Origin: Gemmatimonadales bacterium
GTDB lineage: Bacteria; Gemmatimonadota; Gemmatimonadetes; Gemmatimonadales; GWC2-71-9
Reading direction: 5' to 3'
Assembly: GCA_041741375.1 (NCBI GenBank)
Contig: JBGSKF010000151.1
Coordinates: 696-64,695, forward strand
Length of the DNA stretch: 64,000 nucleotides
Under the pieces are notes generated by a model. The model saw only the letters and a list, made by a program, of their open reading frames with translations. It searched no databases and was not told where the DNA came from. A program made the translations under genes and the position numbers. Positions 8,837 through 27,472 of the stretch are shown piece by piece. How positions within the stretch are numbered: the first letter of the stretch is position 1; each line of letters begins with the position of its first letter.

Positions 8837-9996
8837 AGGGTGGCTCCGATATGGGACATGAGGCGCTCTGTGACCTGAACCGGAGTGAGGTGGGGACGAG
8901 GGAGACGGCCGGCGATGCCGGGCCGGATGCGAAGGTGGAGGAAGCGGGGACCGGGGCGGGGTTCCGGGCTGGTGAGGAGAGCGTCGATGGCGTCGAGCCG
9001 GTGGGACGCGAATGCCTGATGGTAGCCGCAGGCTGCCGCGATGCCGGCAAAATGGACCCTGGAAGAGACGGTCGGTTGTCCCCCGGTGGACTCGTGCATC
9101 TGATTGTCCAGGAGGAGGTGGATCAGGTTGCCTCCCGCCTGTGCCCCGATGGTGGCGAAGGTGCCCATCCGCATCAGGGCGGCACCGTCTCCATCAACCA
9201 CCACGACCCGGAGGTCGGGCCGGGCCTGGGAGAGCCCGAGGCCCACGGCGGTGGCGCACCCCATGGAGCCGACCATGTAGAAGTGATTGGGCCGGTCCTC
9301 TCGGGCATAGAGCTCCCGACCGGTGTACCCCGTCGTGGCGATCACCACGGTGGCGCCATCGGGCCGTGTGTGCTCGAGAAGCCGGCCGAGGGCCTCGGCA
9401 CGGGTGGGCCACTGCGCGGGGTCACTCACCTCCTCTTCCGGCGTGGGGCTGACCGGCCTCGAGGGGGGAACACTCCGCACGATTCGCGGGGGACGCGGGG
9501 CGATGGTTCCCTTGCGCATCAGCAGCGCGAAGGGGCGGTGGCCGGTGCGCAGGTGCTGGAGTGCGCGCTGGAGAACGGAGGCCACGGTCGCGGATTCGTT
9601 CGGGAAGTACTCCCATGGCACCTGCATCGTGTCCAGCAGGGATCCGGTGATCCGCCCCATCAGCTCATGCTGGGGCTCGTCCTTCAGGTCCGGTGCCCCG
9701 CGCCAGGTGACGATCAGGAGAACCGGGAGCCGGAAGACCCAGGCGAGCGAGGTGAGGGGGCTCACCGCGTTGCCGAGGCCGGAGTTCTGCATCATCGCGA
9801 TGCCGGGGTGCCCGCCGAGGGCGGCGCCGGCCATGGCGGCCACGGCCTCACCTTCATTTGCGGCCGTGAGACAGGGAAGCCCGGCATCGTCGATCACGTG
9901 GTCGAGGAACGGGGTGAGAAAGGAGCAGGGCACCCCGGCGTACCGGGCAAGGCCGAGGTCGCGAGCCGGGGTGACGAACTCCGAGGCCTCGATCAC
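8821..9996 (-). CDS. aepY: phosphonopyruvate decarboxylase
   Basis: [36 protein letters not shown] and [11 protein letters not shown]-binding motif. Confidence 0.95.
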
Positions 9997-11654
9997 GCGA
10001 ACGCTCCCGCCTGGTGGAGGTCCTCCAGGTCGTTGACGTCGAGCCAGTGCCCGCTGATATAACAGACCGCGGGCGGGGTGCCGGTGGCCGCGAGGTGTGT
10101 GAGGAGGAACGGGAGATCGAGCCGGGGGAAATCGGGGCGGGACTGAAGCTCCGTCAGAGCCCGCCGGAGGCGCTGCGTGCCCTCACTGCGCGAGCGGACC
10201 ATTCCGACCCACCGGCCATGGGCGGAGACGCCGTTGGATCCCGGGGTCGCGGAGACCCGGAGCAGGGAGACCCGTTGGTCGAAGATCCCTCGATCGTCCG
10301 CGGCGCTGCAGTGGGCCAGATCGCGGTCGAGGTGGCGGTCTCCCGGGCGCACGGAGGAATCGACGACGGTGACCACGTCTCCCTCGGTCTGGAAGAGACG
10401 ATCGAGGATGTAGCTCCGGAAGAGGATGTCGCCATAGAGCAGGAGCACGTCTCCCTCCATGATCTCCAAGGTGCGGGCCAGGGAGGCGAGTTCGCCCGTG
10501 GTGTCATGGTCGGGATTGAGGAGGACGGTGACGCCCGGAATGTCGATGGCCTCGGCGCGCCACCCCCCCACCACGGTGAGGTCGTGCATTCCCTGGCCCT
10601 TCAGGGTGTCCACCATCCGGCGAAGAAGCGGGACACCCGCCACGGGGAGCATCACCTTGGGGCGGTCCTCCGTCACCGCCTCCAGTCCCGCGCCGCGGGT
10701 GGCTCCCAGGATGATGGCCCGGGTGTGTCCGTGTCCGGTGTCCGCATACCGTCGCTCGGCCTCGAGCAACTCGTCGGCGCCTTGCAGCCGGAACACCTCG
10801 TCCACCGGGGCGATGCGGTCCTCCACCGTCACCAGTGTCTCCCGGGCGTGGATTTCCCGCGCGGTCTCCTGCATGGCCCGGATGGAGGAACGCAGCAGAT
10901 GGTTGGCCCAGATGACCACGTTGATGCCGGCCCGGCGGAACACGTCGGTGGGGGTGGAGTAGTACTTGGTGGGCACGATGACGAGGGGAGCGCGACCCGC
11001 CCATTTCCGGGCAAAGTCGAGGATCTCGTCGGGTCGCGAGCTCTTGCTGTGGATGAGGATCGCATCGGCGCCCGCCTGGCGGTAGGCCTCGGCCCGGCGC
11101 AGCGCCTCCGACAGGCCCCACCCGGCGATCAGGGCCTCCACGCGCGCCACCAGGCAGAAGTCCGCGGTGCACTGGCTGTCCTTTCCCGCCTTGATCTTGC
11201 CGCAGAACTCGTCCACATCGGCGAGCGGTTGTCGCTCCCCCCGGATGAAGCTGTTGGTCTTGGGGAACTGCTTGTCCTCGATACAGACACCGGCGATGCC
11301 GCGCTGTTCCAGCTTGCCCACGAGCCGCCGGAGGTTGTTGAAGTTTCCATACCCGGTGTCGCCATCGAGCAGGATGGGGATGGTGGTGGTGTCGGCCATG
11401 AATTCCAGGACATCCACCACCTGGGTCCAGCTCGCCTCGTTGCTGTCCCGCACACCGAGCTGGGCCGAGATCGAGAGCCCGCTGCCCCAGAGGCCGGCAA
11501 AGCCCGCCTCCTCGGCGATCCGGGCGCTGAGTCCGTTGTGGGCCTCCATCAGGAAGTCCAGATCGGGGGAGGTCAGCAGGCGGCGCAGAGCGGCCGCCTT
11601 GCCGGGGGCCTGGCACCGCGGGGCCACGGGAAGGCGAGGCAGGCTGCTGATCAT
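9993..11654 (-). CDS. pepM: phosphoenolpyruvate mutase fused to a C-terminal nucleotidyltransferase (PntC-like) domain
   Basis: Diagnostic EDKxxxxxNS motif ([11 protein letters not shown]) and DGDTG; C-terminal [25 protein letters not shown]-transferase domain. Confidence 0.96.
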
Positions 11655-12466
11655 GGGGAACGCTCCAGCGTGAGGGGCACGATCTCCCGGGATGGCCCAG
11701 GGGTTCCGGGAAGCGAATCAAGGAGGGGGAGAATGGCGGTCCGGGCGCGGGAGACATCCTCCGGGAAATCGATCTCGATCCAGGGAAGACCGGTGATGTC
11801 CTCCGCGCCGAATTCGCCCGAGGGACTCTCGAGGATCAGGTCGCGGAGTACCTCCTCATGCGGCGCTTCTTGTCGGCCCTGGTTGAGGTATCGGCGGGCT
11901 CCCTCCGCCATCCGGCGCGCTCCCGCGGCGGACAATCGGAAAAATCCCACCGACTCTCCCACGGTGTCGTAGCGCAGGTCCGATGCGACCTGTTTGCGGA
12001 ACTCGACGACCTGCCCCTTTCTCTGGCAGACCTTGACCGGCTCCTCCCCCTCGGCGGACGACCGGTCGAACAGGAGGCGTTGCGGGGGGCCCGGTGTGAG
12101 CAGGGGCGCGAGGATGCGACCGTCGCAGAGGACGTCGGCATCCAGGAGGATCGTCTCCTCGCCCGCGGTGAGCCAGGGAGCCGCGGTGTCCAGGCTCACC
12201 ACGCTTCCCTCGCGGAAGCGGGGGTTCCACCGGGTCTCGGGTCGGGGGATGATGTCGAGATGGTCCAGCACCTCCTCAATGGCATGATCGTGCCACCCGG
12301 TCACGATGCCTATCCGGAAGATACCCGCATCGTGCAGCATCCGGAGCTGCCGTTCGAGCAGGGTGTGGCCCCCGAAGGGGAGCAGACACTTGGGGAGTCG
12401 GTCCGCTTCGTCGCCGCCGGAGGAGAGCCGGCGCCCGATGCCCGCGGCGAGGATCACCGCCCTCAC
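11651..12466 (-). CDS. phosphocholine/phosphonate cytidylyltransferase family protein
   Basis: [31 protein letters not shown] and WIEIDFPED; GTG start overlaps the upstream stop. Confidence 0.9.
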
Positions 12467-13485
12467 GACGGGACTCCCGGTTCGCCGGGTGTGACGGTGC
12501 ACGGTCGGGCCATCGGAGCGATGGGAGCACGCGTCAGGGCGCGGGCCTCCGTGAACTGCCACACCACGAGGCCCGGGACTCCGAGGGCAAGCTCGCGGAC
12601 CCGCTTGGCAAGCGAGAGGGCGAGGGCCACTCCGGGGTCGATGCCGAGGAGGGAGCCGAGAAAGATGTAGGCGCCCTCCTGGATGCCCAGGGCCCCGGGC
12701 ACGGCGAAGGCCGCGCCGCGCACCGCCTGCCCGAGGCTCTCGAGCACCAGCGCCTCGGTGAGGGAAACGGGGGCTCCCACCAGCCACATCACGAGCCAGA
12801 CCTCTCCCGCTCCGAAAATCCACGCCCCGAAGTGCCACACGCTCGACACGAGGACTCCCCGGCCCCGGCCGTAGACGGCCCGGAGCTCGCGGTCGAGCGA
12901 CTCGGCCCCCCCCAGAAGGCTGGTCCACGCCCGCCCGGTGACCGGAGCGAGGTGCCGCGCCAGGAAGCCGAAGAGACCTCGTCGCTGGACATGCCAGAAG
13001 AGGCCGATGACGAACGCCACGAGCCCGAGCCCCGCGAGAAGAACCGGCAGAGCCCCGGTCGGTCCGATCCGCGTGAGGAGGATCCCGAGGCCCAGGAGCC
13101 CGAAGAACATCTGGGTGCCGGCGGCGACGGTCATGTCCGCGATCACTGTGGCCGCGGCCACCGGTCCCGGGGTGCCCGTGCGGGTCACGAGACGCGCCTT
13201 GGCCACATCGCCCCCGATCTGCGCCACGGGTAGGAGCCCGTTCACCGATTCTCCGATCCAGCGGGTCCACACCAGGGTTCGAAGCGGAGGATGGGGTTGC
13301 GGGAAGAGGGGGCGCCAGGCGATGGCGTCGAGCACGACGATCACCCCATGCAGCACAATCACCAGGAGGAGGCCCCAGCCGGCAGCGCCCAGCGCGGTGA
13401 GCACGACGGTGGTTCCCTGCCACGCCAGGATCCCCGTGAAGAGGGCGAGGCCCAGGAGTCCGGTGGCGAGGGCTGCTTTCCTCAT
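12463..13485 (-). CDS. HpnL-like / lysylphosphatidylglycerol synthase TM (flippase-like) membrane protein
   Basis: Multi-TM protein; RWIGESVNGLLPVAQIGGD and ESLGQAVRGAAFAVPGALGIQEG match the HpnL (TIGR03476)/LPG_synthase_TM pattern. Confidence 0.85.
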   Translation of the reverse strand: MRKAALATGLLGLALFTGILAWQGTTVVLTALGAAGWGLLLVIVLHGVIVVLDAIAWRPLFPQPHPPLRTLVWTRWIGESVNGLLPVAQIGGDVAKARLVTRTGTPGPVAAATVIADMTVAAGTQMFFGLLGLGILLTRIGPTGALPVLLAGLGLVAFVIGLFWHVQRRGLFGFLARHLAPVTGRAWTSLLGGAESLDRELRAVYGRGRGVLVSSVWHFGAWIFGAGEVWLVMWLVGAPVSLTEALVLESLGQAVRGAAFAVPGALGIQEGAYIFLGSLLGIDPGVALALSLAKRVRELALGVPGLVVWQFTEARALTRAPIAPMARPCTVTPGEPGVPS

Positions 13486-14237
13486 GCGGTCTGCTTCCTC
13501 CCGTGGAACACCTGCCGGAATCCGAAATACGCGATGCTGTCCTTCATGTGCGACACGAACCGGTGCCAGGGCGTCATTCGTGGGTCGGTGACGAACTCCA
13601 TGGTGAGGGAGACCCGTCGTTCATCCGGTCCCAGCGGGGTCACCTGATGCCAGACCGTGTCGCCGTTGAAAAAGACCAGGGTGCCCGGGCGAAGGGGAAC
13701 CGAGAGGTCAATGGTGTCCCGGTCGGTGCGGGTGCGATGAAGCTGGCAGTCGAGGGTCGCGGCGGAGTCGTTGACCAGACCGAAGAGCAGGGTGTACCGC
13801 CGGCCGCGGTAGTAGGAGGTGTCGTAGTGCCAGGTGATGTAGTCGCCCGGTTCGGTGTAGTAGTACAGGGCGTAGGTGTGGGGGTCCGATGCGGGGCAGT
13901 CGAGCAGCGTGTCGCCGGTCAGCTCCTGGAGAAAGGCGCGCAGGGCGGGCGACCGGTACAGCTCCGGGATCAGGGGGAAGGCCCGGTCCAGCACATGACG
14001 CCCCACGCTTCCGCCCTTCTTGACCCGGGGGACGAAATTGCGGTGGACCAGGGGATCCAGATCCGGAAGCCGCTCCAGCAGGCGAGTGAGAACCGCAGGG
14101 GGGAGGAAGTCCTCCACCAGGAGAAACTCGCCCTGCTCGGCGAACTGGAGACGGAGGGCTTCGTGATCCAGGGCAGCGAGAGCGGCCCGCAGGTCGGAAT
14201 CGAGCGCAGGCACGGGGGAGGTCGCGGTCGCTGTCAT
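13482..14237 (-). CDS. 2OG-Fe(II) oxygenase (probable phosphonate headgroup hydroxylase)
   Basis: HxD...H facial triad (WHYD...WHQV) and RxS 2-oxoglutarate motif (RRVS). Confidence 0.85.
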   Translation of the reverse strand: MTATATSPVPALDSDLRAALAALDHEALRLQFAEQGEFLLVEDFLPPAVLTRLLERLPDLDPLVHRNFVPRVKKGGSVGRHVLDRAFPLIPELYRSPALRAFLQELTGDTLLDCPASDPHTYALYYYTEPGDYITWHYDTSYYRGRRYTLLFGLVNDSAATLDCQLHRTRTDRDTIDLSVPLRPGTLVFFNGDTVWHQVTPLGPDERRVSLTMEFVTDPRMTPWHRFVSHMKDSIAYFGFRQVFHGRKQTA

Positions 14238-14878
14238 GGATCTCTCGCCGGGGTGGAAGTGGTGCTCAAAGTGGAGGGGGATTCCGGGTGAGGCCGGAGG
14301 CCGAGATACCGGAAGACGAGCCACGCCGCGAAGAGCGGAGCCCCGACCACCGCGGCCAGGAGGAAGGGCTGGAGGGCTCCCCCGAGAACCACGAGGGGGA
14401 GCAGATAGAGGACGTCCTCGATCTCGAACCAGCCGGTGTGGGGGAGGGCGGCCCGCGCGGCTCCGATCCGGCGTTCGATCTCGATGCGGAGCCAGAAGAT
14501 GGCCGAGACCGAGAGCCCGGCCAGGAGTCCGAGCGGGGCCGCCCATTGGTGCAGCCACCCGGAGCGGAGGCCGATCCCGATTCCCAGGAAGACCAGGCCG
14601 TGGACCGCCGCATCGGAGGCCAGATCGTAGACATGGCCGAATCGTGTGATCCGCCCGGTCATCCGGGCCAGTTCCCCGTCCGTGTGGTCGAGCAGGTTGG
14701 AGAGAAAGAAGAGCCACCCGCCGGTCACGACCCAGTGGCCTCCGGCGGCGAAGGCCACGGCGGAGGCGAGCCCGACCACCAGGCGGAGGGTGGTGAGGTG
14801 ACTGGGCGTGACCGGCGTGTGTTGGAGCGGCCGCACCAGCCAGTGGGCCAACCGCGCGTCGAGGGGGCGGGTGCTCAT
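14234..14878 (-). CDS. CDP-alcohol phosphatidyltransferase family protein
   Basis: TPSHLT and DHTDGELAR..T.FGHVYDLASD signature. GAGGG RBS before ATG 14878; alternative start 14974. Confidence 0.9.
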   Translation of the reverse strand: MSTRPLDARLAHWLVRPLQHTPVTPSHLTTLRLVVGLASAVAFAAGGHWVVTGGWLFFLSNLLDHTDGELARMTGRITRFGHVYDLASDAAVHGLVFLGIGIGLRSGWLHQWAAPLGLLAGLSVSAIFWLRIEIERRIGAARAALPHTGWFEIEDVLYLLPLVVLGGALQPFLLAAVVGAPLFAAWLVFRYLGLRPHPESPSTLSTTSTPARDP

Positions 14879-15007
14879 CGCACCCTCGTCGGGAAGGGGA
14901 GGATGTCCGGGCGGCGTGGCCTCGCAGGTCTCATCGGCGGCACAGTCCTTCCGGGTTGTCGGTACACCTGCCATCTCGGTAACGACGGCAGCCCCCGGTT
15001 GGATGTC

Positions 15008-16471: not shown

Positions 16472-19279
16472 ATGATCTCCCGGCCACTGCGGCGGGGACT
16501 CGATGCCGCGATGCGCTGGCCCGGCCGCACGCTCCGGGGGGCCGCGGTGGTCACCGCCGTGGCCCTCGGCTTCGGCTCCCAAGTCGAACTCCGCACCAGC
16601 CGACAGGATCTGGCCCCGCCGGATGAACCCGCCGAACAACGGTGGCAGAGATTTCTGGCCGAGAAGCCGATCGCCAATGTGCTGGTGGCGGTCGTGGAAA
16701 CGGTGCCGGGAACGCCCTTCTCCGCCTCACACCTTCGGCGGGTCACGGATCAGCTGGCCTTGTCCTTCGCCGAGGACTCCCTGGCCGGGAGCGTCTTCCA
16801 CCGCACCGACCTCGCCTGGTTCGAGCGTCACGCGCTCCACGCCGCTCCTCCCGCCGCGATCACCGAGATCGTCTCGGCACTCGGGGAGGAGGGCATGCTC
16901 CGGCGCCTGGTCGAGGGAGGGGGACTCGTCGCGCTCAACGAGGGCCTGGCCGATGCCCTCGGCTCTGGGGCGCGCCACGCCGAGGCCCCCGACGACGACG
17001 CGGCTCGGTCGCTGGGCACCGTGGTGCAGATTCTGAGGTTTGAACAGCGCTTCCTGACCGACCCCGAATCGGTCACCCGGAGGATGGACTCGGACGCGCC
17101 TCTCCTCTCCCTGGTCAGCGCGGTGGCGCAAGGCGACGCGGGCGGGCTTCCCCCGGGCTATGTCGGCAGCCGCGACGGCACCCGGATGTTCCTCACCATC
17201 ACTCCGGCATCCTCGGCGGATGACCTCCCCGTGTTGATGCGCTTTGTCGGTGCCATGCGGGCTCGGGCTGATCGGGTGATGGCGGAGAATCCCGGGTTCC
17301 GGGTGGCCTTTACCGGTCAGGCCGCGCTCTCCGTGGACGAGATGGCCCTGGTCCAACGCGACGCGACGCGGTCATCGATTCTGGCCGCCGTCGGGGTGGC
17401 CCTCCTGATCCTCGTGGCCTTCCGATGGCGCACGCATGCCGTGCTGGCCTTCACCGCGCTGCTGGCGGGTCTGATCTGGACCTTCGGAGTCGTGTGGTTT
17501 GCCCCGGGGTACCTCAACCTGATCACCACTGCCGTGATTCCCACGCTCCTGGGCGTGGGCGTGGCCTTCGGAATTCATCCCGTCTCGGAGTATGAACTGG
17601 ATCCCGGGAGCGACACTGGATCAGAACAGGCTCTGCAGAGTGCCTTCCGTGCGACCCTGATTCCGGTGACCGTGTCCGCCCTCACCACGGCCGCGGCTTT
17701 CTTCGCCATCCTGCTGATCCCGTTCCGCGGGTTTGCGGAACTGGGGCTCGTGGCGGGTCTCGGCGTGCTGCTCTGCCTCCTGGCCGCGTTCACGGTGCTT
17801 CCCTCACTCATGATCGCCCATGGCCGACGGACTCGTTCCCGGGCAACCCGTCTCGCCGGGTCCCCGCCTGCGCCCACGGCACCCTTCGATCGGGTCTGGT
17901 CTCGGGGTGCCGCCGCAGCGGTGTCGCGCTACCCGCGCCTCGTGGTGCTGATGGCCGGGGGTGTCACCGCAGTGCTGGCATGGGGAGTGCTCCGTGTGCG
18001 GTTCGATCCCGACCTGATGGGGCTGCTGCCCCGGGAGGCGGAAGCCGTGAGGTACCAGGAGCTGATCGCACGGACCTCGGATCTCTCCCCCTTCTTTGCC
18101 GTGGTCGAGGCGGATTCCCTGACGGAATTGCGCACCCTGAGGACCCGGGCCGACGAGGATCCGGCCATCGGACGATTCGAGTCGATCCTCGATGTGATCC
18201 CCGCGGACACCTTGGCCGCCGCCGCCACGATGACAACTCTTCGGGACGCGCTCGGGACGGTTCGGGCCAATCCCTCCGCGCCATCCCTGGACAGGGAGGC
18301 GCTCCTCCGCTCGCTGGAACGGCTCGAAGGAGCACTCGATCGCGCGGCCGAGGATGCATTCGGGACCGGCAGGGCCGAGCTGGCTGCCGTGCTGGAGGAG
18401 GCTCGCGAGGCGGCGGCCGCTGCGGGGACCGAGATGCAGAACGGGCGACATTCCGAGGACGGTGTCCTGGAGACGGAGTGGGACACGCTGCACCGGTGGA
18501 TCGGGAGTGCGCTGGCAAGTGTGCGCGCCGCGGCGGAGAACGGTGCCCCCACGCTCGCCGGACTCCCCCCCGAACTGCGGGCACGCTATGTCATCGGAAA
18601 GGATCGTCTGCTGGCCTATCTCCATCCACGGCATGAGGAGGGGACCGGCACCTTCAGCGCGGATCAGGGGCCTCGGTTTGCCGAGGCGGCACTCGGCGTG
18701 TCCCCCGATGCCACCGGGTTTCCGATTGTTTTCCAACGGATGACGGCACGAATCACCGAGGGTTTCTATGAAGCCGTTGCGGTCGGTGGTCTGCTGGTGA
18801 TGGTGATCCTGTTGGCCCATTTTCGAAGCGTGTCCGCCTCCCTCCTGGCGGGCATGCCGCTCATGCTGGGCATCCTCTGGACCCTCGGTGTCCAGGGGTG
18901 GCTCGACATCCCGTTCAACTTCGCCAATCTGGTGGCGATCCCCCTGGTGATCGGGGTCGGCATCGATGATGGAGTCCATCTGGTGCATCGCGCTCGTCTT
19001 CCCGGTATGATGACCGTCCATGCCGCCCTGCTGAGTTCCGGCCGGGCCATTCTCATCACCTCCCTGGCCACGGTGGCGGGATTCGGAAGCCTCATCTTCT
19101 CTGCCCATCGGGGGATGGCCAGCCTCGGCACCCTCCTCGTCATCGGTGTCCTGGCCTGTCTGGTGGCCTCGATCGTTGTTCTGCCCAACCTGCTGGTGCT
19201 GACCCGCGGGTGGCGCCGCTCCGGGGAGACGGCCGGGCCCGGTGTGGTCCTGGACATGATGGAGGGGGTGGGGAAGTGA
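16472..19279 (+). CDS. hpnN: MMPL/RND family transporter, HpnN/BstA-like
   Basis: Two MMPL repeats with large periplasmic loops; FRGFAELG, NFANLVAIPLVIGVGIDDGVH and HRGMASLG; first gene of the shc operon. Confidence 0.85.
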   Translation: MISRPLRRGLDAAMRWPGRTLRGAAVVTAVALGFGSQVELRTSRQDLAPPDEPAEQRWQRFLAEKPIANVLVAVVETVPGTPFSASHLRRVTDQLALSFAEDSLAGSVFHRTDLAWFERHALHAAPPAAITEIVSALGEEGMLRRLVEGGGLVALNEGLADALGSGARHAEAPDDDAARSLGTVVQILRFEQRFLTDPESVTRRMDSDAPLLSLVSAVAQGDAGGLPPGYVGSRDGTRMFLTITPASSADDLPVLMRFVGAMRARADRVMAENPGFRVAFTGQAALSVDEMALVQRDATRSSILAAVGVALLILVAFRWRTHAVLAFTALLAGLIWTFGVVWFAPGYLNLITTAVIPTLLGVGVAFGIHPVSEYELDPGSDTGSEQALQSAFRATLIPVTVSALTTAAAFFAILLIPFRGFAELGLVAGLGVLLCLLAAFTVLPSLMIAHGRRTRSRATRLAGSPPAPTAPFDRVWSRGAAAAVSRYPRLVVLMAGGVTAVLAWGVLRVRFDPDLMGLLPREAEAVRYQELIARTSDLSPFFAVVEADSLTELRTLRTRADEDPAIGRFESILDVIPADTLAAAATMTTLRDALGTVRANPSAPSLDREALLRSLERLEGALDRAAEDAFGTGRAELAAVLEEAREAAAAAGTEMQNGRHSEDGVLETEWDTLHRWIGSALASVRAAAENGAPTLAGLPPELRARYVIGKDRLLAYLHPRHEEGTGTFSADQGPRFAEAALGVSPDATGFPIVFQRMTARITEGFYEAVAVGGLLVMVILLAHFRSVSASLLAGMPLMLGILWTLGVQGWLDIPFNFANLVAIPLVIGVGIDDGVHLVHRARLPGMMTVHAALLSSGRAILITSLATVAGFGSLIFSAHRGMASLGTLLVIGVLACLVASIVVLPNLLVLTRGWRRSGETAGPGVVLDMMEGVGK

Positions 19280-20151
19280 TGCTGATGAGATGTGGGGTTC
19301 TCGGGGCGATGCTCTGCCTCCCATGGACTGTCGGAGCGGCGCAAACCGCCGGCCCGCGCACACTCGTCGTGTGTGCACCGGGACATCCGGGCACCGCTCT
19401 GCAGGCCGAACCCACGCTCCGGGCATTGGCGCGAGCCCTTGCCGCCGTGGGTGCCTGGTCCGGTGACACGGTCCGGACAACCTTCTGTGAAAGCGCGGAG
19501 GAAGGAGTGCGTCAGGTGAGAGCGTCGACCGTGGCGGCCGCACTCGTCTCCCTGCCCTTCTATCTGGCCCATGCAGGGGAGTTGGGCCTCCGAGCCGTGG
19601 CGGTTCCGGTCACCTCCGTGGGGGCTCGGGCTCCGTGGGTTCTCGTGGCAGGTCAGGGTCGTGTGCGCCGTCCCGCGGACCTGGTTGGATGGACGGTGTC
19701 CAGCAGGGCAGGGTACGCCCCGAGTGTGGTGGAGGCCCTGGTGGCCACTGCGTGGGGGCGTCTCCCGGCGGGGGTCGGGGTCACCTTCATACCCCGGTCG
19801 TTGTCGGCACTGCGCCGGTCCGCGGCCGGCGACCCGGTGGCGGTTCTGCTCGACGGTGAGGAGGCGGCTGCCCTGAAGGCGCTCCCCTTCGCCAGTCGGT
19901 TGGAGGAGGTGTTCCGTTCCGATTCGCTTCCCCTCTCGGTTCTTGCCGTGGTCGATCGGAATGGTGTGGGTGACGCGGAAGCGAGCTGGGACCGGGACCT
20001 CGTGGAACCCCTGCTGAGGCTCCACCGATCCCCCGGGGGAGCCGCAGTTCTGAAGGAGATGCGGATCGAGCGCTTCGAACGTCTGAGCCCGCGAGACCAG
20101 GCGCAGCTCGAGCGGTGGCCCGGTTCTTCCTCGACTCCGCGCCCTCGATGA
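19279..20151 (+). CDS. periplasmic PhnD/transferrin-like substrate-binding protein (BstB-like, putative)
   Basis: Signal peptide, 'LVVCAPGHPGT..AEP' N-terminus and binding-protein-like size; coupled to the transporter and the TPR lipoprotein. Fold is inferred. Confidence 0.55.
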   Translation: MLMRCGVLGAMLCLPWTVGAAQTAGPRTLVVCAPGHPGTALQAEPTLRALARALAAVGAWSGDTVRTTFCESAEEGVRQVRASTVAAALVSLPFYLAHAGELGLRAVAVPVTSVGARAPWVLVAGQGRVRRPADLVGWTVSSRAGYAPSVVEALVATAWGRLPAGVGVTFIPRSLSALRRSAAGDPVAVLLDGEEAAALKALPFASRLEEVFRSDSLPLSVLAVVDRNGVGDAEASWDRDLVEPLLRLHRSPGGAAVLKEMRIERFERLSPRDQAQLERWPGSSSTPRPR

Positions 20152-20966
20152 GAAGGGCACGGTGGATGACGGCGTTTCCGGGACACCTGGTCCTCGCGCT
20201 CACTGCCACCGCATGTGCCTCGGCCCTCCCTCCCCCGCGGGACCTGAACAGCATTGTTCCCGAGCAGGCAGAGTGGGAGTCCCTTCCGGTCGACGAGTTG
20301 GCGAGAAGGGCCGAGGACCGGTTTGCGGAACGGACCGTGGCCGCGGTGCGGGAGGCCGCCGAGATCTGGACCCGGATCGCGGTCCGACGGCCTGGTGACT
20401 TCGAACCATTGACTGCGGCAGTTCGGGCACGGATCTGGTTGTCGGAAACCCTCGAGATCCCCGGGGATCGGAGCAGGGAGGCTGTGGACGCCGTTCGGAC
20501 TGCGCAATGGTGCGACATTCGGGCTCCGGGAAATCCGGAGTGTGCCTACTGGTTGGGAGCAGCCCTGGGGGTGCAGGCGCGGGAAAACCGCAGCACGGCG
20601 CTCGATGCCCTCGATCGCATGGAATCACTGTTCACACGGGCGGCAGCCGAGGCACCCCGGGTGGCCGACGGGGGTCCCGATCGGGCGCTGGCAAGCCTGT
20701 ATGCCCGGGCCCCGGCGTGGCCCGCCGGTCAGGGGGACCCCGACCGGGCCCTTGAGCATGCCTTCCGCGCCATCGAGCTCGCGCCGGAGCACCCCCCGAA
20801 CTACCTTGTCGCTGCCGAGGCCCTGCGGGCTGCGGGAGACAGGAGCCGGGCGATCACCTATCTTGATCGGGGGCTTGTGGCGGCCCGCCGCCGACTGGGG
20901 GCACGAGACCCGGACGCACCCCGGTGGATCCAGGAGATCGAAACGGAACGTTTGAAGTATCAGTAG
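20148..20966 (+). CDS. TPR lipoprotein, TatT/BstC-like
   Basis: Lipobox-like TATAC; helical repeats; 'CAYWLGAALG', 'GGPDRALASLYARAPAWP..GD...A..H..RAIELAPEHPPN' resembling TatT-type proteins. Confidence 0.7.
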   Translation: MRRARWMTAFPGHLVLALTATACASALPPPRDLNSIVPEQAEWESLPVDELARRAEDRFAERTVAAVREAAEIWTRIAVRRPGDFEPLTAAVRARIWLSETLEIPGDRSREAVDAVRTAQWCDIRAPGNPECAYWLGAALGVQARENRSTALDALDRMESLFTRAAAEAPRVADGGPDRALASLYARAPAWPAGQGDPDRALEHAFRAIELAPEHPPNYLVAAEALRAAGDRSRAITYLDRGLVAARRRLGARDPDAPRWIQEIETERLKYQ

Positions 20967-21001: not shown

Positions 21002-22972
21002 ATGAACCGATTCCGTGCGACGAGCGAACCGCTCGGGGACGCGTCGATTCTCGAGGAATCTGCCCGGGGACCGGAGTCTGTCCGGATCGGGCATCTGGAA
21101 CGGGTGATGCACGCCGCCCAGGAATACCTTTTCGGCATTCAGCAGCCCGACGGCCATTGGCGCGCGCGGCTGGAAGGCGATTCCATCCTGGAGTCGGAAT
21201 ATGTCCTGCTGATGCACTTCCTGGGACGGGCGGGAGAGCCCAAAGTGCGCAAGGCCGCCGATTACCTCCGTCGCACCCAGATGGAGACGGGGGGCTGGGC
21301 CCACTATCACGGGGGCCCGGCCGAGGTCAGCGCGTCGGTGAAGGCGTACTTCGTCCTCAAGCTCATGGGCGACCGGCCCGAGGCCCCGCACATGGTGCGG
21401 GCCCGTGAGATGATCCTGCGCGCGGGGGGGATCGAGGCCTGCAACTCCTTCACCCGGATCTACCTGGCGATCTTTGGCCAGTATCCCTGGAGCCGGTGCC
21501 CCGCGGTGCCGCCCGAGATGATGCTGCTTCCGCGATGGTCCCCCCTGCACATCTACCGGATGTCGGCCTGGTCCCGCACGATCGTGGTCCCCCTCAGCAT
21601 GATCTGGGCGCATCGGCCGAGTGTTGCGGTGCCGGAGGACGCCTCGATCGCCGAACTCTTCGTCCCGGGGCGCGCACCCACCATGGATCTGCAGGCGGCG
21701 GCGCGGTTCTGGCGGCTTCTCTTTACCGGTCTCGATGTGGCCCTCAAGGGGATCGAGGAGCTTCCCGTGAAGCCGCTCCGCGAACGGGGCCTGCGGGAGG
21801 CCGAACGATGGATCCTGAAGCGGTTGGAGAAGAGTGACGGGCTGGGGGCGATCTTCCCACCCATCATCAACACGATTCTGGCCCTCCGGTGCCACGGGTA
21901 TGCTGTGGATCACCCGGTGATCCAGTCCCAGGTGGCGGAGCTCGAAAAGCTCGAGCTGGAGGACGAAAGGGATCTCCGGATCCAGCCCTGCCTCTCGCCG
22001 GTCTGGGACACGGCACTCACGATGAATGCCCTGCTCGGATCCGGAATCAGCGGGGAGGACCCTCGGCTCCTGTCCGGCGCCCGCTGGCTGCTCGAGAAGG
22101 AGGTGCGGGAGACGGGGGATTGGGCCATGACCTGCGAACCGGTGGCGCCCGGAGGGTGGTACTTCGAGTACGCCAACGAGTTCTACCCCGACCTCGACGA
22201 CACCACCCAGGTGCTCACGGTCCTCGGACGGATCCGATTCCCCGATCCGGCGGAGGACCGCCGCCGAACCGAGGCGATGCGGCGAGGGCTGGATTGGATG
22301 CGGGCCATGCAGAACGCCGACGGCGGGTGGGCCGCCTTCGACCGGGGGTGCGATTCCGAGTTCCTCACCCATGTGCCCTTCGCCGATCACAACGCCATGA
22401 TCGACCCGAGCTGCGAGGACATCACCGGCCGCGCGCTGGAAACGTTCAGTCTCCTCCGGCCGTCGGGCGGGGATGCGGAGGTACAGCGCGCCGGGCAGTT
22501 CCTGCTGCGGCGCCAGGAGGCGGACGGGACCTGGTATGGGCGGTGGGGATGCAACTACCTCTACGGAACCTGGCTCGCCGTGCATGGGCTCACCCGGGAA
22601 CTCCTTCCCCCCGCCGACGCCCGGATCCAGCGGGCTGTGGCGTGGGTCCGCGCCCGCCAGAATGCGGATGGGGGATGGGGAGAACTCCCCCGGTCCTACG
22701 ACGATCCCTCCACCAAGGGCGACGGCCCGAGCACAGCCGCACAGACCGCCTGGGCGGTGCTGACCCTGCTCGCCGCGGGGGACCACACCTCCGCGAGTCT
22801 GGTGCGGGGCATCACCTATCTGCTGGAAACCCAGCGGGCCGACGGGTCCTGGTACGACGAGGCCTGGACCGGAACCGGGTTCCCGCGCGTGTTCTATCTG
22901 AAGTATCACTTGTATGCCACATACTTTCCGCTCCTCGCTCTGGGGACGTACCGGGAGAAGGTGACCGCATGA
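21002..22972 (+). CDS. shc: squalene-hopene cyclase
   Basis: QW repeats (QQPDGHW, QNADGGW), catalytic DLDDT (DxDD), SPVWDT and TGTGFPRVFYL. Confidence 0.97.
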   Translation: MNRFRATSEPLGDASILEESARGPESVRIGHLERVMHAAQEYLFGIQQPDGHWRARLEGDSILESEYVLLMHFLGRAGEPKVRKAADYLRRTQMETGGWAHYHGGPAEVSASVKAYFVLKLMGDRPEAPHMVRAREMILRAGGIEACNSFTRIYLAIFGQYPWSRCPAVPPEMMLLPRWSPLHIYRMSAWSRTIVVPLSMIWAHRPSVAVPEDASIAELFVPGRAPTMDLQAAARFWRLLFTGLDVALKGIEELPVKPLRERGLREAERWILKRLEKSDGLGAIFPPIINTILALRCHGYAVDHPVIQSQVAELEKLELEDERDLRIQPCLSPVWDTALTMNALLGSGISGEDPRLLSGARWLLEKEVRETGDWAMTCEPVAPGGWYFEYANEFYPDLDDTTQVLTVLGRIRFPDPAEDRRRTEAMRRGLDWMRAMQNADGGWAAFDRGCDSEFLTHVPFADHNAMIDPSCEDITGRALETFSLLRPSGGDAEVQRAGQFLLRRQEADGTWYGRWGCNYLYGTWLAVHGLTRELLPPADARIQRAVAWVRARQNADGGWGELPRSYDDPSTKGDGPSTAAQTAWAVLTLLAAGDHTSASLVRGITYLLETQRADGSWYDEAWTGTGFPRVFYLKYHLYATYFPLLALGTYREKVTA

Positions 22973-24027
22973 GATTTCCGCTGCACATCACGCTCGACAC
23001 CGTGAACCACCAGGTGCGGAACGCGATCGCCGGCAACAAGCGATATCCGTTCGTCCTGATGCTGGAACCGCTCTACACCTGCAACCTGGCCTGCATCGGA
23101 TGCCTGCCCGAGCGCCACACCGGCAAGCTGGCGGACCGGCTTCCCCTGGAGGCGTGCCTCAAGGCGGTGGATGACTGCGGCGCGCCCTCCGTGTCGATCT
23201 GCGGTGGCGAACCGACCGTGTACCCCGAGCTCCCCGAGCTGGTGGCGGGGATCATCGCGCGGAAGCGGCACATCTACCTCTGCACCAACGCCCTGTTGCT
23301 CGACACCAAGGTGTTCGGCCGGATTCCGCCCCACAAGCGGTTGACCATCAACGTTCACCTCGACGGGATGCGAAAGACCCACGACTACGTGACCGCACGG
23401 GAGGGAGTGTTCGACAAGGCGATCGCGATGATCCGCGAGGCCAAGGCCCGCGGCTATCACGTGATCACCAACACCACGGTGTTCAAGGAGACCGACATCG
23501 ACGAGGTGGAGGAACTCTGTGAGTACATGACGCAACTCGGCGTGGACGGCATGCTGATCTCCCCGGGATATCACTACGAACACATCGAGCACGACATCTT
23601 CCTCACCCGGGAAGACATCGAGGAGAAATTCAAGCGCGTCCTCCGGTTCGCCGACCGGTTCCCCCTCATGTCCACCCCGCCGTTCCTGGAGTTTGCGGCG
23701 GGACTCCGCGAGTACCCGTGCTCGCCCTGGAGCACCGTGACCTTCACGCCGAAGGGGTGGAAGGGGCCCTGCTACCTGATCGGAAAGAAGTTCACCTTCG
23801 ACTGGAACGAGTTCTGGACCGGAACCGATTGGGCCTACTGGGAATCCCGGCAGGACCGCCTCTGCCAGAACTGCAAGATGCACTCGGGGTTCGAGGCCTC
23901 GGTGGTCCGGGAGCTGGCCCGCAATCCGGGTGACCTCATGCGCGTGATGAAGTGGAACTTTCTCGGCAACGGACGCCGCAAGGCACCGGAACGGGAGACG
24001 GTGGCCGTCGCGTCGAACGGACAGTAG
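22969..24027 (+). CDS. hpnH: adenosyl-hopene transferase (radical SAM)
   Basis: YPFVLMLEPLYTCNLACIGC (CxxxCxxC), GGEP and C-terminal CQNCKMHSGFE; ATGA overlap with shc. Confidence 0.93.
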   Translation: MRFPLHITLDTVNHQVRNAIAGNKRYPFVLMLEPLYTCNLACIGCLPERHTGKLADRLPLEACLKAVDDCGAPSVSICGGEPTVYPELPELVAGIIARKRHIYLCTNALLLDTKVFGRIPPHKRLTINVHLDGMRKTHDYVTAREGVFDKAIAMIREAKARGYHVITNTTVFKETDIDEVEELCEYMTQLGVDGMLISPGYHYEHIEHDIFLTREDIEEKFKRVLRFADRFPLMSTPPFLEFAAGLREYPCSPWSTVTFTPKGWKGPCYLIGKKFTFDWNEFWTGTDWAYWESRQDRLCQNCKMHSGFEASVVRELARNPGDLMRVMKWNFLGNGRRKAPERETVAVASNGQ

Positions 24028-25017
24028 ATGCACCTGGTCACCGGCGGAACCGGCTTCGTCGGAGCCCATGTGGTGCGCGCCCTGGTGGCTCGGGGAGAGG
24101 GAGTGCGATGTCTGGTCCGGCCCTCCAGCGACCGGGCCAACCTCGAAGGGCTTCCGGTGGAACTGGTGCAGGGAGTCCTCGACGACCCCCGGTCTCTCCA
24201 CGCGGCGATGGCGGGGTGTGAGATGGTCTACCACGTGGCCGCCGAGTATCGGCTGGGGGCCCGCAATCCCGCCTCGCTGTATCGGAGCAACGTGGAGGGA
24301 ACCCGGAACCTTCTGCAGGCCGCGGGGGACGCCGGGGTGTCCCGCATCGTCTACACCAGCACGGTGGGGGCCCTGGTTCCCAACCCGGCGGGAGGCCCGG
24401 CCGACGAGAGCCATTTTCCGCCGAACGGACAGGCGCTGATCGGGCACTACAAGCGTAGCAAGTTCCTCGCCGAGCAGGTGGCTCTCTCGTTCGTGAAGGA
24501 GGGACTCCCGGTCGTGGTGGTGAGCCCCTCCGCGCCGATCGGCGAGCTGGACCGAAAACCCACGCCCACCGGTCGGCTGATCGTCGACTTTCTGCGCGGA
24601 AAGATGCCGGCCTACATGGACGCCGGCCTCAATCTGGTCGACGTGCAGGACGTGGCCGCGGGGCATCTCCTGGCGGCGGAGCGAGGTGTCGTGGGAGAGC
24701 GTTACATTCTCGGCGGGCGCGACTTCACCCTTCGCGAAATCCTGGAGATGCTCGCGCGGCTCTCGGGCCGGCCCGCGCCCCGCCTTCGGATCCCCGCCTG
24801 GGTGGCGATGAGCGCCGCCGTCGTGAACACCGCCTGGTCGTGGAGCCTGGGGAGGGATCCCGGCATTCCGGTGGAAGGGGTGCGCATGGCCCTGAAACCA
24901 ATGTCCTTCACGCCGGCCCGGGCCGTGCGGGAGCTTGGGCTGCCCCAGAGTCCGATCGAGGACGCGCTGGGCCGGGCCGTGGAGTGGTTCCGGCAGCACG
25001 GTCATGTCCCCGCCTGA
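24028..25017 (+). CDS. hpnA: hopanoid-associated NAD-dependent epimerase/dehydratase
   Basis: VTGGTGFVG, HVAAEYRL, YKRSK and KPTPTG motifs. Confidence 0.9.
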   Translation: MHLVTGGTGFVGAHVVRALVARGEGVRCLVRPSSDRANLEGLPVELVQGVLDDPRSLHAAMAGCEMVYHVAAEYRLGARNPASLYRSNVEGTRNLLQAAGDAGVSRIVYTSTVGALVPNPAGGPADESHFPPNGQALIGHYKRSKFLAEQVALSFVKEGLPVVVVSPSAPIGELDRKPTPTGRLIVDFLRGKMPAYMDAGLNLVDVQDVAAGHLLAAERGVVGERYILGGRDFTLREILEMLARLSGRPAPRLRIPAWVAMSAAVVNTAWSWSLGRDPGIPVEGVRMALKPMSFTPARAVRELGLPQSPIEDALGRAVEWFRQHGHVPA

Positions 25018-25798
25018 ATCGGCCGGAATCGTGATGGTCATGGCCGCACTTCCGGAGGAAGTTGTCGTACTCCGACGGCGTTTCACCGACGGTCGAGGGT
25101 TGTCGAAGGGACCGGGGGCGTTGCGCCGCTGGGAAGGAAAGTTGGGACCCTGCCGCGTGCAGGTGGTGGTCACGGGAGACGGAGCCGACCGGGCCCGATC
25201 CGGAGCACGACTCGCCTTCGACGGGCTGTTGGGAGAGGGTGCTCGATGCCGGCATCTCATCGTCGCCGGCGTGGCGGGCGGAGCCGATCCCGCTCTCCGG
25301 GCGCACGATCTGGTGGTGGCGCGCGAAGTGGTCCGGGAGGGAGGTGTCGCACGCCGGGCGGACGAGGCGATGGTCGCTGAGGTGGTTCGGGAGACGGGTG
25401 CTGCGCCGGGTCGGGTGCTCACCCGGGAGACGTTGGCCGCCTCCGTGGCTCACAAGCGCCAGATCCACGACGAGTGGTCGAGGGTGGATGACGTCCCGAC
25501 GGTGGTGGATCTGGAGACCGCCTGGTACCTCGAGGAGGCGGAACGTCGCGGGGTGCCGTGGACGGTACTGCGCGTCGTGAGCGACGCGGCACATGAGCCC
25601 CTTCCCGCGTTTCTGGAAGGATGCCGGGATGAGGGAGGTGCCATCATCCGGGGGCGCGTGGCGCGGCATGCCCTGCGGCACCCGGGCACCATCCGGTCGC
25701 TCCTTCGGCTTGCCCGCCGGGTGCGGCGCTGCGCCGGGGTGCTCGCCGAGGCCGTCGCCCTGACCGTGGGCATGGATGTCAAGGAGAATGGTGGATGA
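25004..25798 (+). CDS. hpnG: adenosylhopane nucleosidase/phosphorylase
   Basis: PNP/MTAN fold: MAALPEE, AGVAGG, VDLET and LRVVSD; located in the hpn operon. Confidence 0.8.
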   Translation: MSPPESAGIVMVMAALPEEVVVLRRRFTDGRGLSKGPGALRRWEGKLGPCRVQVVVTGDGADRARSGARLAFDGLLGEGARCRHLIVAGVAGGADPALRAHDLVVAREVVREGGVARRADEAMVAEVVRETGAAPGRVLTRETLAASVAHKRQIHDEWSRVDDVPTVVDLETAWYLEEAERRGVPWTVLRVVSDAAHEPLPAFLEGCRDEGGAIIRGRVARHALRHPGTIRSLLRLARRVRRCAGVLAEAVALTVGMDVKENGG

Positions 25799-26703
25799 TG
25801 GCAGAGAGTGAACCGACCCGAGGGATGGAGGAACTCGACCGGCTGCTCCGGGACACGAGCCGCACGTTCGCGCTCGCCATCCCGCTCCTCCCCGGAGAGC
25901 TGCGGCGGTCGGTCACGGTGGCCTATCTGCTGTTCCGCATCGCCGACACCTTCGAGGACAGCGACTCCTGGTCCCCCGACGAGCGGATCATCGCCCTCAG
26001 CGAGTTCGCAGATCTCTTGCGCCACATTGATATCGACAAAGCGAACCTCCTGGGGCGCGACTGGGCCACGCGCTCTCCGGTGCATCACGCCGGATATCTC
26101 GAACTCCTCGAACGGACGGGCCAGGTTCTCGAGGCCCTCGCCGAGCTGCCGGAGCCGGTCCGGGAACGAATCGTCCATCACACCTGCCGGACCGCCGACC
26201 GGATGGCGTTCTTCGTTCGGCAGACCGGAACCGATGGCCAGCTCCGTCTCGGTTCCGTGGGGGAGCTTCGGGAGTACTGCTATGCGGTGGCGGGAATCGT
26301 GGGGGAGATGCTCACCGACCTCTACCTGTTGGAGTGCCCGGGACTCGAAACGCGCGCCGCTGACCTCCGTCGCTGGGCTCCCCTCTTCGGCGAGGCGCTG
26401 CAGCTCGTCAACATCCTCCGCGACGCCTCGGCGGACGGCTTGGAGGGACGGAGCTACGTCCCCGCCCGGGCCAACCGGGCCGAGCTCTTTGCCCTGGCCC
26501 ATGCCGACCTGGGCGTGGCCCGGGAGTACACCGACGCGCTTCGGGCCGGGGGTGCTCCGAGTGGGGTGATCGCGTTCAACGCCCTCCCGATCGAGCTGGC
26601 CGTGGCCACGCTGGAGGTGGTGGAACGGGAGGGACCGGGAGCCAAGATCTCCCGCGAGGCGGTCGGGGAGATTCTGATGCAGGTTCTGGGCTCATGCCCT
26701 TGA
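25795..26703 (+). CDS. squalene synthase (single-enzyme farnesyl-diphosphate farnesyltransferase type)
   Basis: SRTFAL, YLLFRIADTFED, YCYAVAGIVG and LQLVNILRD motifs. Confidence 0.85.
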   Translation: MMAESEPTRGMEELDRLLRDTSRTFALAIPLLPGELRRSVTVAYLLFRIADTFEDSDSWSPDERIIALSEFADLLRHIDIDKANLLGRDWATRSPVHHAGYLELLERTGQVLEALAELPEPVRERIVHHTCRTADRMAFFVRQTGTDGQLRLGSVGELREYCYAVAGIVGEMLTDLYLLECPGLETRAADLRRWAPLFGEALQLVNILRDASADGLEGRSYVPARANRAELFALAHADLGVAREYTDALRAGGAPSGVIAFNALPIELAVATLEVVEREGPGAKISREAVGEILMQVLGSCP

Positions 26704-27064: not shown

Positions 27065-27472
27065 TCGTCCCTGTGGGCCCTTGGGGGCGTGCCGCATGAG
27101 GGGGTAGGGAAAGTGCTCCCGTGACCGGCCCGGGATCGTTCGGGCCGGGTGCGGAACCACCAGTCAATTCGGCGACGATCCTTGATGGCGAAGAACCTTG
27201 AGCTGAACATCAATTCATTGACGCTCAATGACATATCTGAGGGGAAGGTGCCTTTCTCCGGGTGTGGTGTGTGGCTCCGGTTGGGTCGATCGTCTCCGTC
27301 CTTGGGCGGGGCACCGTGCCTCCGGCCACTCATCCTCACCCGTCTCCAGGTACAGCATCCACCCCATGCAGGGGCTGCTCCCCGGAACGCAGCCCGAATG
27401 CACGCAAATGGCTCTTGTGAAATCCCGGCTCTCGTGACATTGTCAAGAGACGCCGGTTTCCGGAGGTTCCCC

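Follow-up and report, generated by a model that had tools for sequence, protein, structure and literature searches.

A BstABC-like set of pump, periplasmic binding protein and TPR lipoprotein genes precedes a squalene-hopene cyclase gene in a Gemmatimonadales genome

Gene organization of the locus

We analysed a 64,000-nucleotide stretch of DNA (hereafter the window) from a Gemmatimonadales bacterium (assembly GCA_041741375.1) in which three consecutive forward-strand genes, encoding a resistance-nodulation-division (RND) transporter of the MMPL family, a secreted protein of 290 amino acids (aa) and a tetratricopeptide repeat (TPR) lipoprotein of 272 aa, lie directly before a squalene-hopene cyclase gene, shc (Table 1). 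The window belongs to contig C151 of a 3.86-Mb assembly that is 95% complete and whose closest named relative is a Gemmatimonadales metagenome-assembled genome (MAG) with a protein identity of 90%. In a search of sequencing runs the genome was found in DNA runs from hot-spring and biofilm metagenomes and in no RNA runs.

A preliminary description of the window had given the trio as an MMPL transporter, a secreted protein of about 290 aa and a TPR lipoprotein, and this was borne out by the open reading frames (ORFs), their translations and Pfam. The further statement that three translationally coupled genes head the shc operon holds for the gene order and for two of the three junctions. The stop codon of the RND gene (TGA, 19277-19279) overlaps the ATG of the second gene at 19279 by 1 nt, with a GGAGG 14 nt upstream, and the second and third genes overlap by 4 nt in an ATGA (ATG 20148, TGA 20149-20151), but a 35-nt gap containing GGGAGG separates the TAG of the third gene (20964-20966) from the likely ATG of shc at 21002. 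The shc and hpnH genes again overlap by an ATGA, at 22969. A signal-like N-terminal segment can be seen by inspection in the 290-aa protein, and the 272-aa protein has a lipobox-like LTATAC whose Cys23 is shared by at least 90% of the 39 relatives aligned with it. Upstream of the trio ispH and hpnL are found on the opposite strand.

The cyclase scores 689.9 bits on the squalene-hopene cyclase model TIGR01507 (cut-off 431.1), which agrees with its earlier assignment from the DxDD motif, here DLDDTT. In a search of the whole 95%-complete genome with the cyclase Pfam models it was the one triterpene cyclase present, and no oxidosqualene cyclase was found. The gene at 24028-25017 fits HpnA and not the sterol demethylation protein SdmB (242 bits against a cut-off of 600). 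As the single cyclase is of the squalene-hopene type and HpnH passes its model, we predict that this bacterium makes hopanoids, extended ones among them, and not sterols.

Table 1 Features of the window at and around the trio
Feature	Position	Strand	Evidence
2-aminoethylphosphonate (AEP) transaminase	7664-8836	-	Over NCBIfam cut-off
Phosphonopyruvate decarboxylase	8821-9996	-	Over NCBIfam cut-off
Phosphoenolpyruvate (PEP) mutase fused to nucleotidyltransferase	9993-11654	-	Over NCBIfam cut-off
HpnL, flippase-like membrane protein of hopanoid clusters	12463..13485	-	TIGR03476 321.8 bits vs 195.65; Pfam LPG_synthase_TM
HalD-like 2-oxoglutarate (2OG) oxygenase	13482 to ~14240	-	Pfam/NCBIfam
CDP-alcohol phosphatidyltransferase	14234-14974	-	Pfam/NCBIfam
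RND/MMPL inner-membrane transporter, HpnN/BstA clade, 935 aa from ATG	16472..19279	+	Pfam MMPL E 6.4e-28
BstB-like periplasmic substrate-binding-fold protein, 290 aa, signal-peptide-like N-terminus	19279..20151	+	PDB 7T1M, NCBIfam BstB, Foldseek
BstC-like (TatT-superfamily) all-helical TPR lipoprotein, 272 aa, lipobox Cys23	20148..20966	+	PDB 7T1S, NCBIfam BstC, Foldseek
Squalene-hopene cyclase (shc/hpnF)	21002..22972	+	TIGR01507, both SQHop_cyclase Pfam domains, DLDDTT
Adenosyl-hopene transferase HpnH	22969..24027	+	TIGR03470 355.4 bits vs 225.05; Pfam Radical_SAM + DUF3463
HpnA, hopanoid-associated sugar epimerase family	24028..25017	+	TIGR03466 454 bits vs 367.65
HpnG-like phosphorylase, start uncertain	24935..25798	+	Pfam PNP_UDP_1; TIGR03468 82.1 bits, below cut-off 187.1
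Squalene/phytoene synthase family protein	25795..26703	+	Pfam SQS_PSY E 4.6e-36; squalene synthase models below cut-offs

The two small proteins resemble BstB and BstC

The trio had been likened in the preliminary description to BstABC of Methylococcus capsulatus, with a proposal to compare predicted structures with BstB, BstC, PhnD and TatT, and in both sequence and predicted fold the likeness was found, the BstB and BstC structures ranking first by each. A phmmer search of all PDB sequences gave BstB (7T1M, E 1.8e-11) as the first match of the 290-aa protein and BstC (7T1S, E 2e-20) as that of the 272-aa protein. Their sole NCBIfam matches were the BstB model NF045601 (55.5 bits, E 4.9e-15) and the BstC model NF045602 (95.1 bits, E 4.4e-27) respectively, both short of a cut-off of 350 bits, and the Pfam families Phosphonate-bd (PF12974; 16.5 bits, E 0.0058, gathering score 27) and TAtT (PF16811; 24.5 bits, gathering score 26.5) were also matched below threshold.

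AlphaFold2 models built on alignments of 29 BstB-like and 39 BstC-like relatives had mean confidence values (pLDDT) of 86.8 and 90.4. Foldseek against the PDB ranked 7T1M first for the 290-aa model (E 2.6e-17, TM-scores 0.72/0.80, 25% identity), followed by arsenate, phosphite and phosphonate binders at about 14% identity, with TM-scores of 0.55-0.68 to PhnD, PtxB and AioX that reflect a common fold. For the 272-aa model the first two ranks went to 7T1S (E about 5e-8, TM-scores 0.69/0.79, 28% identity), with the TatT proteins Es_TatT (8G52) at rank 4 and Tp0956 (3U64) at rank 45. Judged from sequence and modelled fold the likeness of the two small proteins to BstB and BstC is far beyond chance, and the trio consists of true but distant homologs of BstA, BstB and BstC.

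The sterol-binding cavity of BstC is largely recognizable in the lipoprotein. The chain numbering of 7T1S was shifted by 14 to fit the 16 cavity and contact residues listed for BstC (eLife, available part of PMC10942540), and of these nine are identical in the 272-aa protein (E86, G128, R132, A138, L139, L142, L171, A175, P176), five are replaced by conservative or smaller residues (V131A, L145M, L167A, K174R, F208V) and two are changed (M135R, M170S), the Arg at the Met135 position being the consensus of the BstC-like family. C122 and C132 of the 272-aa protein are invariant across this family and absent from BstC, and the position of BstB Tyr120 is an invariant Trp in the BstB-like family.

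A predicted complex of the two proteins scored 0.55, the best of three controls reaching 0.01, with at least 91% of the contacts agreeing between runs and a partner pLDDT of at least 89. In the benchmark of this score 116 of 157 solved complexes and 2 of 215 mismatched pairs attained the mark of 0.55, and scores of at most 0.60 comprised only 18 of those 157 solved complexes plus both mismatches. The model is thus weakly suggestive of contact between the BstB-like and BstC-like proteins. We know of no solved BstB-BstC complex.

The pump carries a third pattern of transmembrane residues

The best NCBIfam match of the pump was the HpnN model TIGR03480 (386.7 bits, cut-off 751.85) followed by BstA NF045600 (307 bits, equivalog cut-off 1400) and a second HpnN model NF052374 (234.7 bits, cut-off 1100), and the top PDB match of this full-length HpnN/BstA-like protein was HpnN 6WU0 (phmmer, E 3e-43). 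Its fourth transmembrane helix (TM4) reads GVGVAFGIH, with Ala-Phe and no Asp, and TM10 reads GVGIDDGVH with an Asp pair. The related pumps of five loci (L006, L009, L014, L021, L024) share a TM4 of GVG[VI]A[FY] that has no acidic residue and a TM10 of GVGID[DN]GVH. Since HpnN has an Asp in TM4 only, BstA an Asp-Tyr in both helices and a diverged Gemmatimonadota pump (locus L106, below) an Asp in both, the window-type pump represents a third pattern. The subfamily, with the acidic residue gone from TM4 and kept in TM10, appears from these motifs to be a mirror image of HpnN.

A subfamily separate from the sterol transporters

The NCBIfam equivalog cut-offs are 1400 bits for BstA and 350 bits each for BstB and BstC. 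As a positive control a bstA-bstB-bstC-sdmB operon (L114) in a sampled gammaproteobacterial genome scored 1585, 465.5, 381.9 and 676 bits, passing all of them, and the BstB cut-off was passed by 3 of the 401 genomes of that sample with the unpublished genome G418 counted in, although that genome entered no other part of the analysis. Because the window trio scores far under the cut-offs that a real operon passes, we regard it as a separate subfamily and not as orthologues. Identity to the L114 operon is 25-27% for the pump (by alignment and tblastn) and about 27% for BstB, and for BstC it is about 40% across half of the protein. In a maximum-likelihood tree of 50 rows the window protein falls inside a clade of 46 rows (support 100/99), which long branches, fully supported in the case of true BstB, set apart from true BstB, from L115 and from L106.

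L115 (6428-7967, gammaproteobacterial genome G774) is an intermediate pair of BstB-like (90.6 bits) and BstC-like (49.8 bits) genes at a contig end with kdpD/kdpE about 4 kb off on the opposite strand, and its position in the tree is between true BstB and the window clade.

Distribution and architectures of the family

A word-indexed search returned 58 BstB-like and 118 BstC-like clusters at 90% identity, whose source annotations are for most members of the kind "hypothetical", "TPR repeat" or "phosphonate ABC transporter substrate-binding protein". When 1.84 billion representatives were searched with a profile, 779 proteins matched at E≤1e-3, 549 at E≤1e-10 (these being clusters at 50% identity) and 157 at E≤1e-30. 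Relatives are encoded in 235 species-level genomes, confirmed among 301 pattern matches in 185,579 species represented by one genome each. The published Bst clusters, 13-16 sequences mostly of methanotrophs, are on these numbers one branch of a much larger family.

Three members, P0316 (871 aa), P0291 (545 aa) and P0319 (459 aa), are well above 290 aa. The BstB-like part of P0316 spans residues 599-864, and such long members may be fusions with another domain.

Results for loci refer to the best 80 loci, in 79 of the 235 carrier genomes, with taxa taken from record titles. They comprise 33 loci in 32 genomes of Acidobacteriota, 33 of Steroidobacteraceae and other Pseudomonadota, 7-8 of Myxococcota and singles from Gemmatimonadales, Methylomirabilota, Binatia and unclassified bins. 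Counts were taken from tblastn and Pfam because a gene caller based on third-position GC content (GC3) chose shadow ORFs over BstB and BstC in several loci. In 72 of the 80 the BstB-like gene has a BstC-like gene after it, and 6 of the 8 misses are at or near contig ends. In two isolates with a BstB-like gene, Anaeromyxobacter terrae SG22 and A. soli SG29, tblastn detected no BstC-like gene within 10 kb downstream.

Two forms of pump accompany the pair. One is the long HpnN/BstA-type RND protein, co-directional and upstream (the window, L006, L007, L009, L014, L021 and L024), and the other is a shorter, HAE3-like MMPL of about 770-830 aa which is divergently transcribed and was seen by tblastn in 46 loci, with MMPL confirmed by Pfam in all nine loci for which the divergent ORF was submitted. 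With the window pump as query tblastn gave no hit in 28 of the 80 loci, a figure that includes missed, diverged short MMPLs, as Pfam found an MMPL in both of the loci checked (L019, L062). In the tree the window is placed with the loci of the long form, L009 being the exception. Outside the genus even the nearest BstB-like relatives do not exceed 48% identity and the window branch is long in the trees, and for these reasons a recent joint transfer of the trio and the hopanoid genes was set aside.

Recurrent association with hopanoid gene clusters

An shc gene lies within 10 kb of the module in four loci (L006, L027, L042, L071) among 41 cyclase-bearing carrier genomes, compared with about 0.2 expected by random placement, a rough estimate in which 20 kb is set against a genome of about 4.5 Mb. 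L006 comes from the sister genome of the window, where the module likewise sits in the hopanoid cluster. In L042 and L071 (Steroidobacteraceae) the BstB-like/BstC-like pair is divergent from an operon of MMPL, NUDIX, hpnH, polyprenyl synthase (ispA), squalene synthase and shc, with or without hpnG. In L027 (Anaeromyxobacteraceae) the order is BstB, BstC, hpnA, hpnH, an FMN-dependent dehydrogenase family gene, amine oxidase, squalene synthase and shc; tblastn detected no pump in the roughly 1.7 kb of contig available upstream. In another Gemmatimonadota family, locus L106 has an RND, periplasmic binding protein and TPR trio convergent with hpnA-like, idi, hpnG, hpnH and shc genes. This trio is strongly diverged, with 402 bits for the RND protein on TIGR03480, E 2.5e-12 for the binding protein on the BstB model and E 2.8e-22 for the TPR lipoprotein on the BstC model. 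From these contexts we conclude that at least four lineages have the module as part of their hopanoid clusters, to which it was added in four different arrangements.

The binding protein of L106 (849-5445, genome G237) is still above threshold on Pfam Phosphonate-bd, with 57.6 bits, and its pump has an Asp in both TM4 and TM10.

In a sample of 301 Gemmatimonadota genomes close BstB-like genes occur in 2, both of the window's genus, and cyclases in 12. We examined eight other Gemmatimonadota cyclase loci, of which seven are of the squalene-hopene type, and L106 alone among these seven has the module. Three of the 301 genomes (G150, G289, G323), all of one genus, have a cyclase that is weak on the squalene-hopene cyclase model (E about 1e-54 to 1e-57). 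In G150 (L107, contig C1, cyclase at 8445-10535 of the locus) it carries the oxidosqualene cyclase-type motif DCTAE, and from this one motif the genus may make sterols.

Taken together we favour the reading, with a rough probability of 0.55, that the trio is an inner-to-outer-membrane relay for hopanoids that is built like BstABC. The proton-driven RND protein would extract hopanoids, the products of SHC, HpnH, HpnG and HpnA, from the inner membrane and would pass them to the soluble BstB-like carrier, from which the BstC-like lipoprotein, with its anchor at the outer membrane, would receive them. This reading is supported by the order and overlap of the genes, by homology and fold, by the type of cyclase and by the recurrent hopanoid synteny, and the retained BstC cavity residues together with the sub-threshold HpnM score and the lack of MlaA and DUF2147 genes described below would also speak for it. 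What we infer is which lipid is carried and in which direction, that one protein hands it to the next, and that the lipoprotein sits at the outer membrane.

Cyclases in carrier genomes and the nature of the cargo

With a criterion of E≤1e-48 a full-length cyclase was found in 40 of the 79 carrier genomes, which are MAGs of unestablished completeness. These are 27 of 33 Pseudomonadota, 4 of 32 Acidobacteriota, 5 of 8 Myxococcota or "delta" genomes, one of the five (G024) having an oxidosqualene cyclase-type enzyme with DCTSE, and 4 of 6 others. This contrast between phyla is too strong for an assembly artefact, and in cyclase-less genomes the module must move something else. What it carries in the many cyclase-less Acidobacteriota is a question that these results raise.

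Several observations weigh against a hopanoid relay. The trio fails the BstA, BstB and BstC equivalog cut-offs by a wide margin, and TM4 of the pump has an Ala at the position of Asp344 of Burkholderia multivorans HpnN. That Asp is reportedly part of the proton relay. No full-length cyclase was found in 39 of the 79 carriers, namely 28 of the 32 Acidobacteriota, 6 of the 33 Pseudomonadota including Steroidobacteraceae, and others, one of the 39 (G021, locus L027) having a partial shc at a contig end. With about half of the carrier genomes lacking a full-length cyclase the family as a whole is not hopanoid-specific, and homology alone does not name the cargo. As six of the seven other Gemmatimonadota shc loci have no module, it is not needed for hopanoid production. 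Moreover the Bst proteins of M. capsulatus pulled down methylsterols and not hopanoids from a mixed lipid extract (available part of PMC10942540), so that the Bst fold does not imply hopanoid binding.

A further point of this kind comes from elsewhere in the genome. The preliminary description had noted no hpnM/MlaC-type gene, which is true of the window, but a whole-genome Pfam MlaC search found such genes on contig C213, the only contig matched. There (L108, 2527-8311) an MlaC-DUF3047 fusion protein and a TolC-like outer membrane efflux protein are encoded together with an MlaC protein and an MMPL of 804 aa that has a sterol-sensing-domain-like region. This lipid-transport cluster is not adjacent to hopanoid genes, and its MMPL, two MlaC-type genes and TolC-like gene could be the real hopanoid exporter. 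On the HpnM model the genome scores at best 57 bits, short of the cut-off of 160, and neither MlaA nor DUF2147 genes were found in the 95%-complete genome.

The cyclase-less carriers also lend weight to the possibility that the cargo is some other envelope lipid, or hydrophobic lipids of many kinds, and that the position before shc reflects co-regulated envelope remodelling and not a substrate in common. Genes of lipid synthesis are missing from the neighbourhood of most of the 80 loci, and relatives of BstC vary in cargo, with sterols for BstC itself and long-chain fatty acids for Es_TatT and Tp0956 (available part of the Acc Chem Res 2024 review). Set against this are the overlapping reading frames within the hopanoid operon, the independent recruitment to the hopanoid clusters of four lineages that differ in gene order, and the fact that by sequence and by fold the sterol-binding 7T1S outranks the fatty-acid-binding 8G52. 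On balance we consider this explanation unlikely.

The direction of transport can be questioned in a similar manner, in that the module could work inwards in the uptake or retrieval of polycyclic lipids, whether exogenous sterols and hopanoids or mislocalised outer-membrane lipid. Outer-membrane barrels with CarboxypepD_reg and OMP_b-brl_4 or TonB-dependent receptor domains adjoin the module in 6 of 16 Pfam-annotated loci (L009:13112-16966, L021:14047-17019, L024:10152-13304, L019:5049-6812, L035:5051-7792, L058:5008-7431), accompanied in L021 and L024 by fn3 and HEAT-repeat proteins. Five of these loci (L009, L019, L024, L035, L058) are in cyclase-less genomes, and the genome of L021 has a cyclase. 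The barrels may be an outer-membrane partner of the module or a sign of uptake, and the TonB-dependent-receptor-like character of the six favours the inward direction. Cyclase-less carriers could handle only foreign triterpenoids, L062 has steroid-reductase-like and 3-beta-hydroxysteroid dehydrogenase-like genes beside the pair, and both small-protein families otherwise serve import, as PhnD-type binding proteins and as TatT of tripartite ATP-independent periplasmic (TRAP) systems (from the accessible text of the sources).

In the window, however, the gene layout has the module co-transcribed with de novo hopanoid synthesis, and no intact TonB-dependent receptor stands beside it, 27149-28309 encoding only a 386-aa plug-domain protein. 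HpnN-type RND proteins are moreover generally held to be exporters, and HpnN of Rhodopseudomonas palustris is reportedly needed for outer-membrane hopanoids, in work ascribed to Doughty in 2011. An inward function of the window trio thus seems distinctly improbable to us, and we retain the outward hopanoid relay as the preferred reading.

A phosphonate gene set upstream of the module

The AEP gene set at 7664-11654 is complete, and it is followed by HpnL, the 2OG oxygenase and the CDP-alcohol phosphatidyltransferase, an arrangement which suggests that a phosphonate-bearing lipid or glycan may be made beside the hopanoid operon. A phosphonate-headed cargo had been raised in the preliminary description in view of the PhnD-like fold. 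In this version the trio would carry a phosphonolipid, or a hopanoid with 2-aminoethylphosphonate made by the adjacent genes, and the head group would be recognised by the PhnD-derived protein. The case for it is circumstantial, with the complete set directly upstream, HpnL-like and 2OG-oxygenase genes recurring near the module in L037, L068, L070 and L078 (in L068 and L070 with a CDP-alcohol transferase too) and the family Arg at the position of BstC cavity residue Met135. On the other side PEP mutase and decarboxylase occur with the module only in the window's own genus (L006, 1 of the 80 loci), the 290-aa protein falls short of the Phosphonate-bd gathering score, and its nearest structure, BstB, binds sterol in hydrophobic lobe cavities and not in the anion site (PMC10942540 and the Acc Chem Res review, as far as available). 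The idea is in our estimation very far from likely. If true it would mean that bacteria have a new class of membrane lipid, exported by a dedicated route, and a carrier that keeps ancestral phosphonate recognition.

Significance and comparison with known systems

For the passage of hopanoids from HpnN onwards to the outer membrane the only published candidates are MlaC-, MlaA- and lipocalin-like proteins of Proteobacteria. To these the hopanoid relay would add the BstB-like/BstC-like pair, which the present results suggest as a third, unrelated carrier type. We found no published description of a Bst-type module in hopanoid clusters in the literature searched, although the supplementary tables of Lawrence et al. 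may list such families. The terms "hopanoid" and "BstA" were joined only in the Bst papers themselves, "TatT" with "hopanoid" gave nothing relevant and "Gemmatimonadetes" with "squalene-hopene cyclase" gave no results in the same literature. The finding matters for hopanoid and sterol trafficking because it greatly widens the Bst family and offers testable hopanoid carriers.

HpnM (MlaC-like), HpnS (MlaA-like) and HpnT (lipocalin-like) are candidate hopanoid carriers proposed from synteny with shc and hpnN and are placed in Alpha- and Gammaproteobacteria (Lawrence et al., bioRxiv 2025, available text of PMC12324291). The proposed job, as periplasmic and outer-membrane partners of an HpnN-type pump, is the same as that suggested here for the BstB-like/BstC-like pair, whereas the folds are unrelated. 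Bst, TPR, TatT and phosphonate-binding proteins are not mentioned in the main text of that preprint as far as it was accessible, and its supplementary tables may list domain families.

HpnN itself (B. multivorans 5KHS/5KHN and 6WU0; R. palustris) resembles the window pump as a full-length RND protein of the same clade encoded within a hopanoid cluster, and it provides both the best solved-structure match and, with TIGR03480, the top NCBIfam match. It differs in having an Asp in TM4 only, where the window pump has Ala and carries its acidic pair in TM10, and in the literature searched we found no description of HpnN with BstB/BstC-type partners. TatT (Tp0956 of Treponema pallidum, 3U64; Es_TatT, 8G52) shares the helical TPR superfamily of the window lipoprotein; however, TatT works with TRAP importers and binds long-chain fatty acids (as described in the accessible text), whereas the window lipoprotein is partnered by an RND pump, and Pfam and NCBIfam annotation showed no TRAP genes adjacent to the trio.

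The closest parallel is with BstABC of M. capsulatus (Zhai et al., eLife 2024, PMC10942540). The BstB and BstC clusters published there, of 16 and 13 sequences, come mostly from Methylococcaceae, with Deltaproteobacteria added for BstC, and are always beside sterol genes (available part of PMC10942540). Here the neighbours are shc and hpnH in place of osc and sdmAB, and the sterol-gene context is absent. TM4 of the pump carries Ala-Phe and TM10 Asp-Asp, compared with Asp-Tyr in both helices of BstA, the two cysteines that are invariant in the BstC-like family are missing from BstC, and Tyr120 of BstB is replaced by Trp. What the two systems have in common is the architecture: an RND protein, a PhnD-fold protein and a TatT-like TPR lipoprotein in the same order and direction, with folds that match 7T1M and 7T1S, beside the genes of a triterpenoid cyclase pathway.

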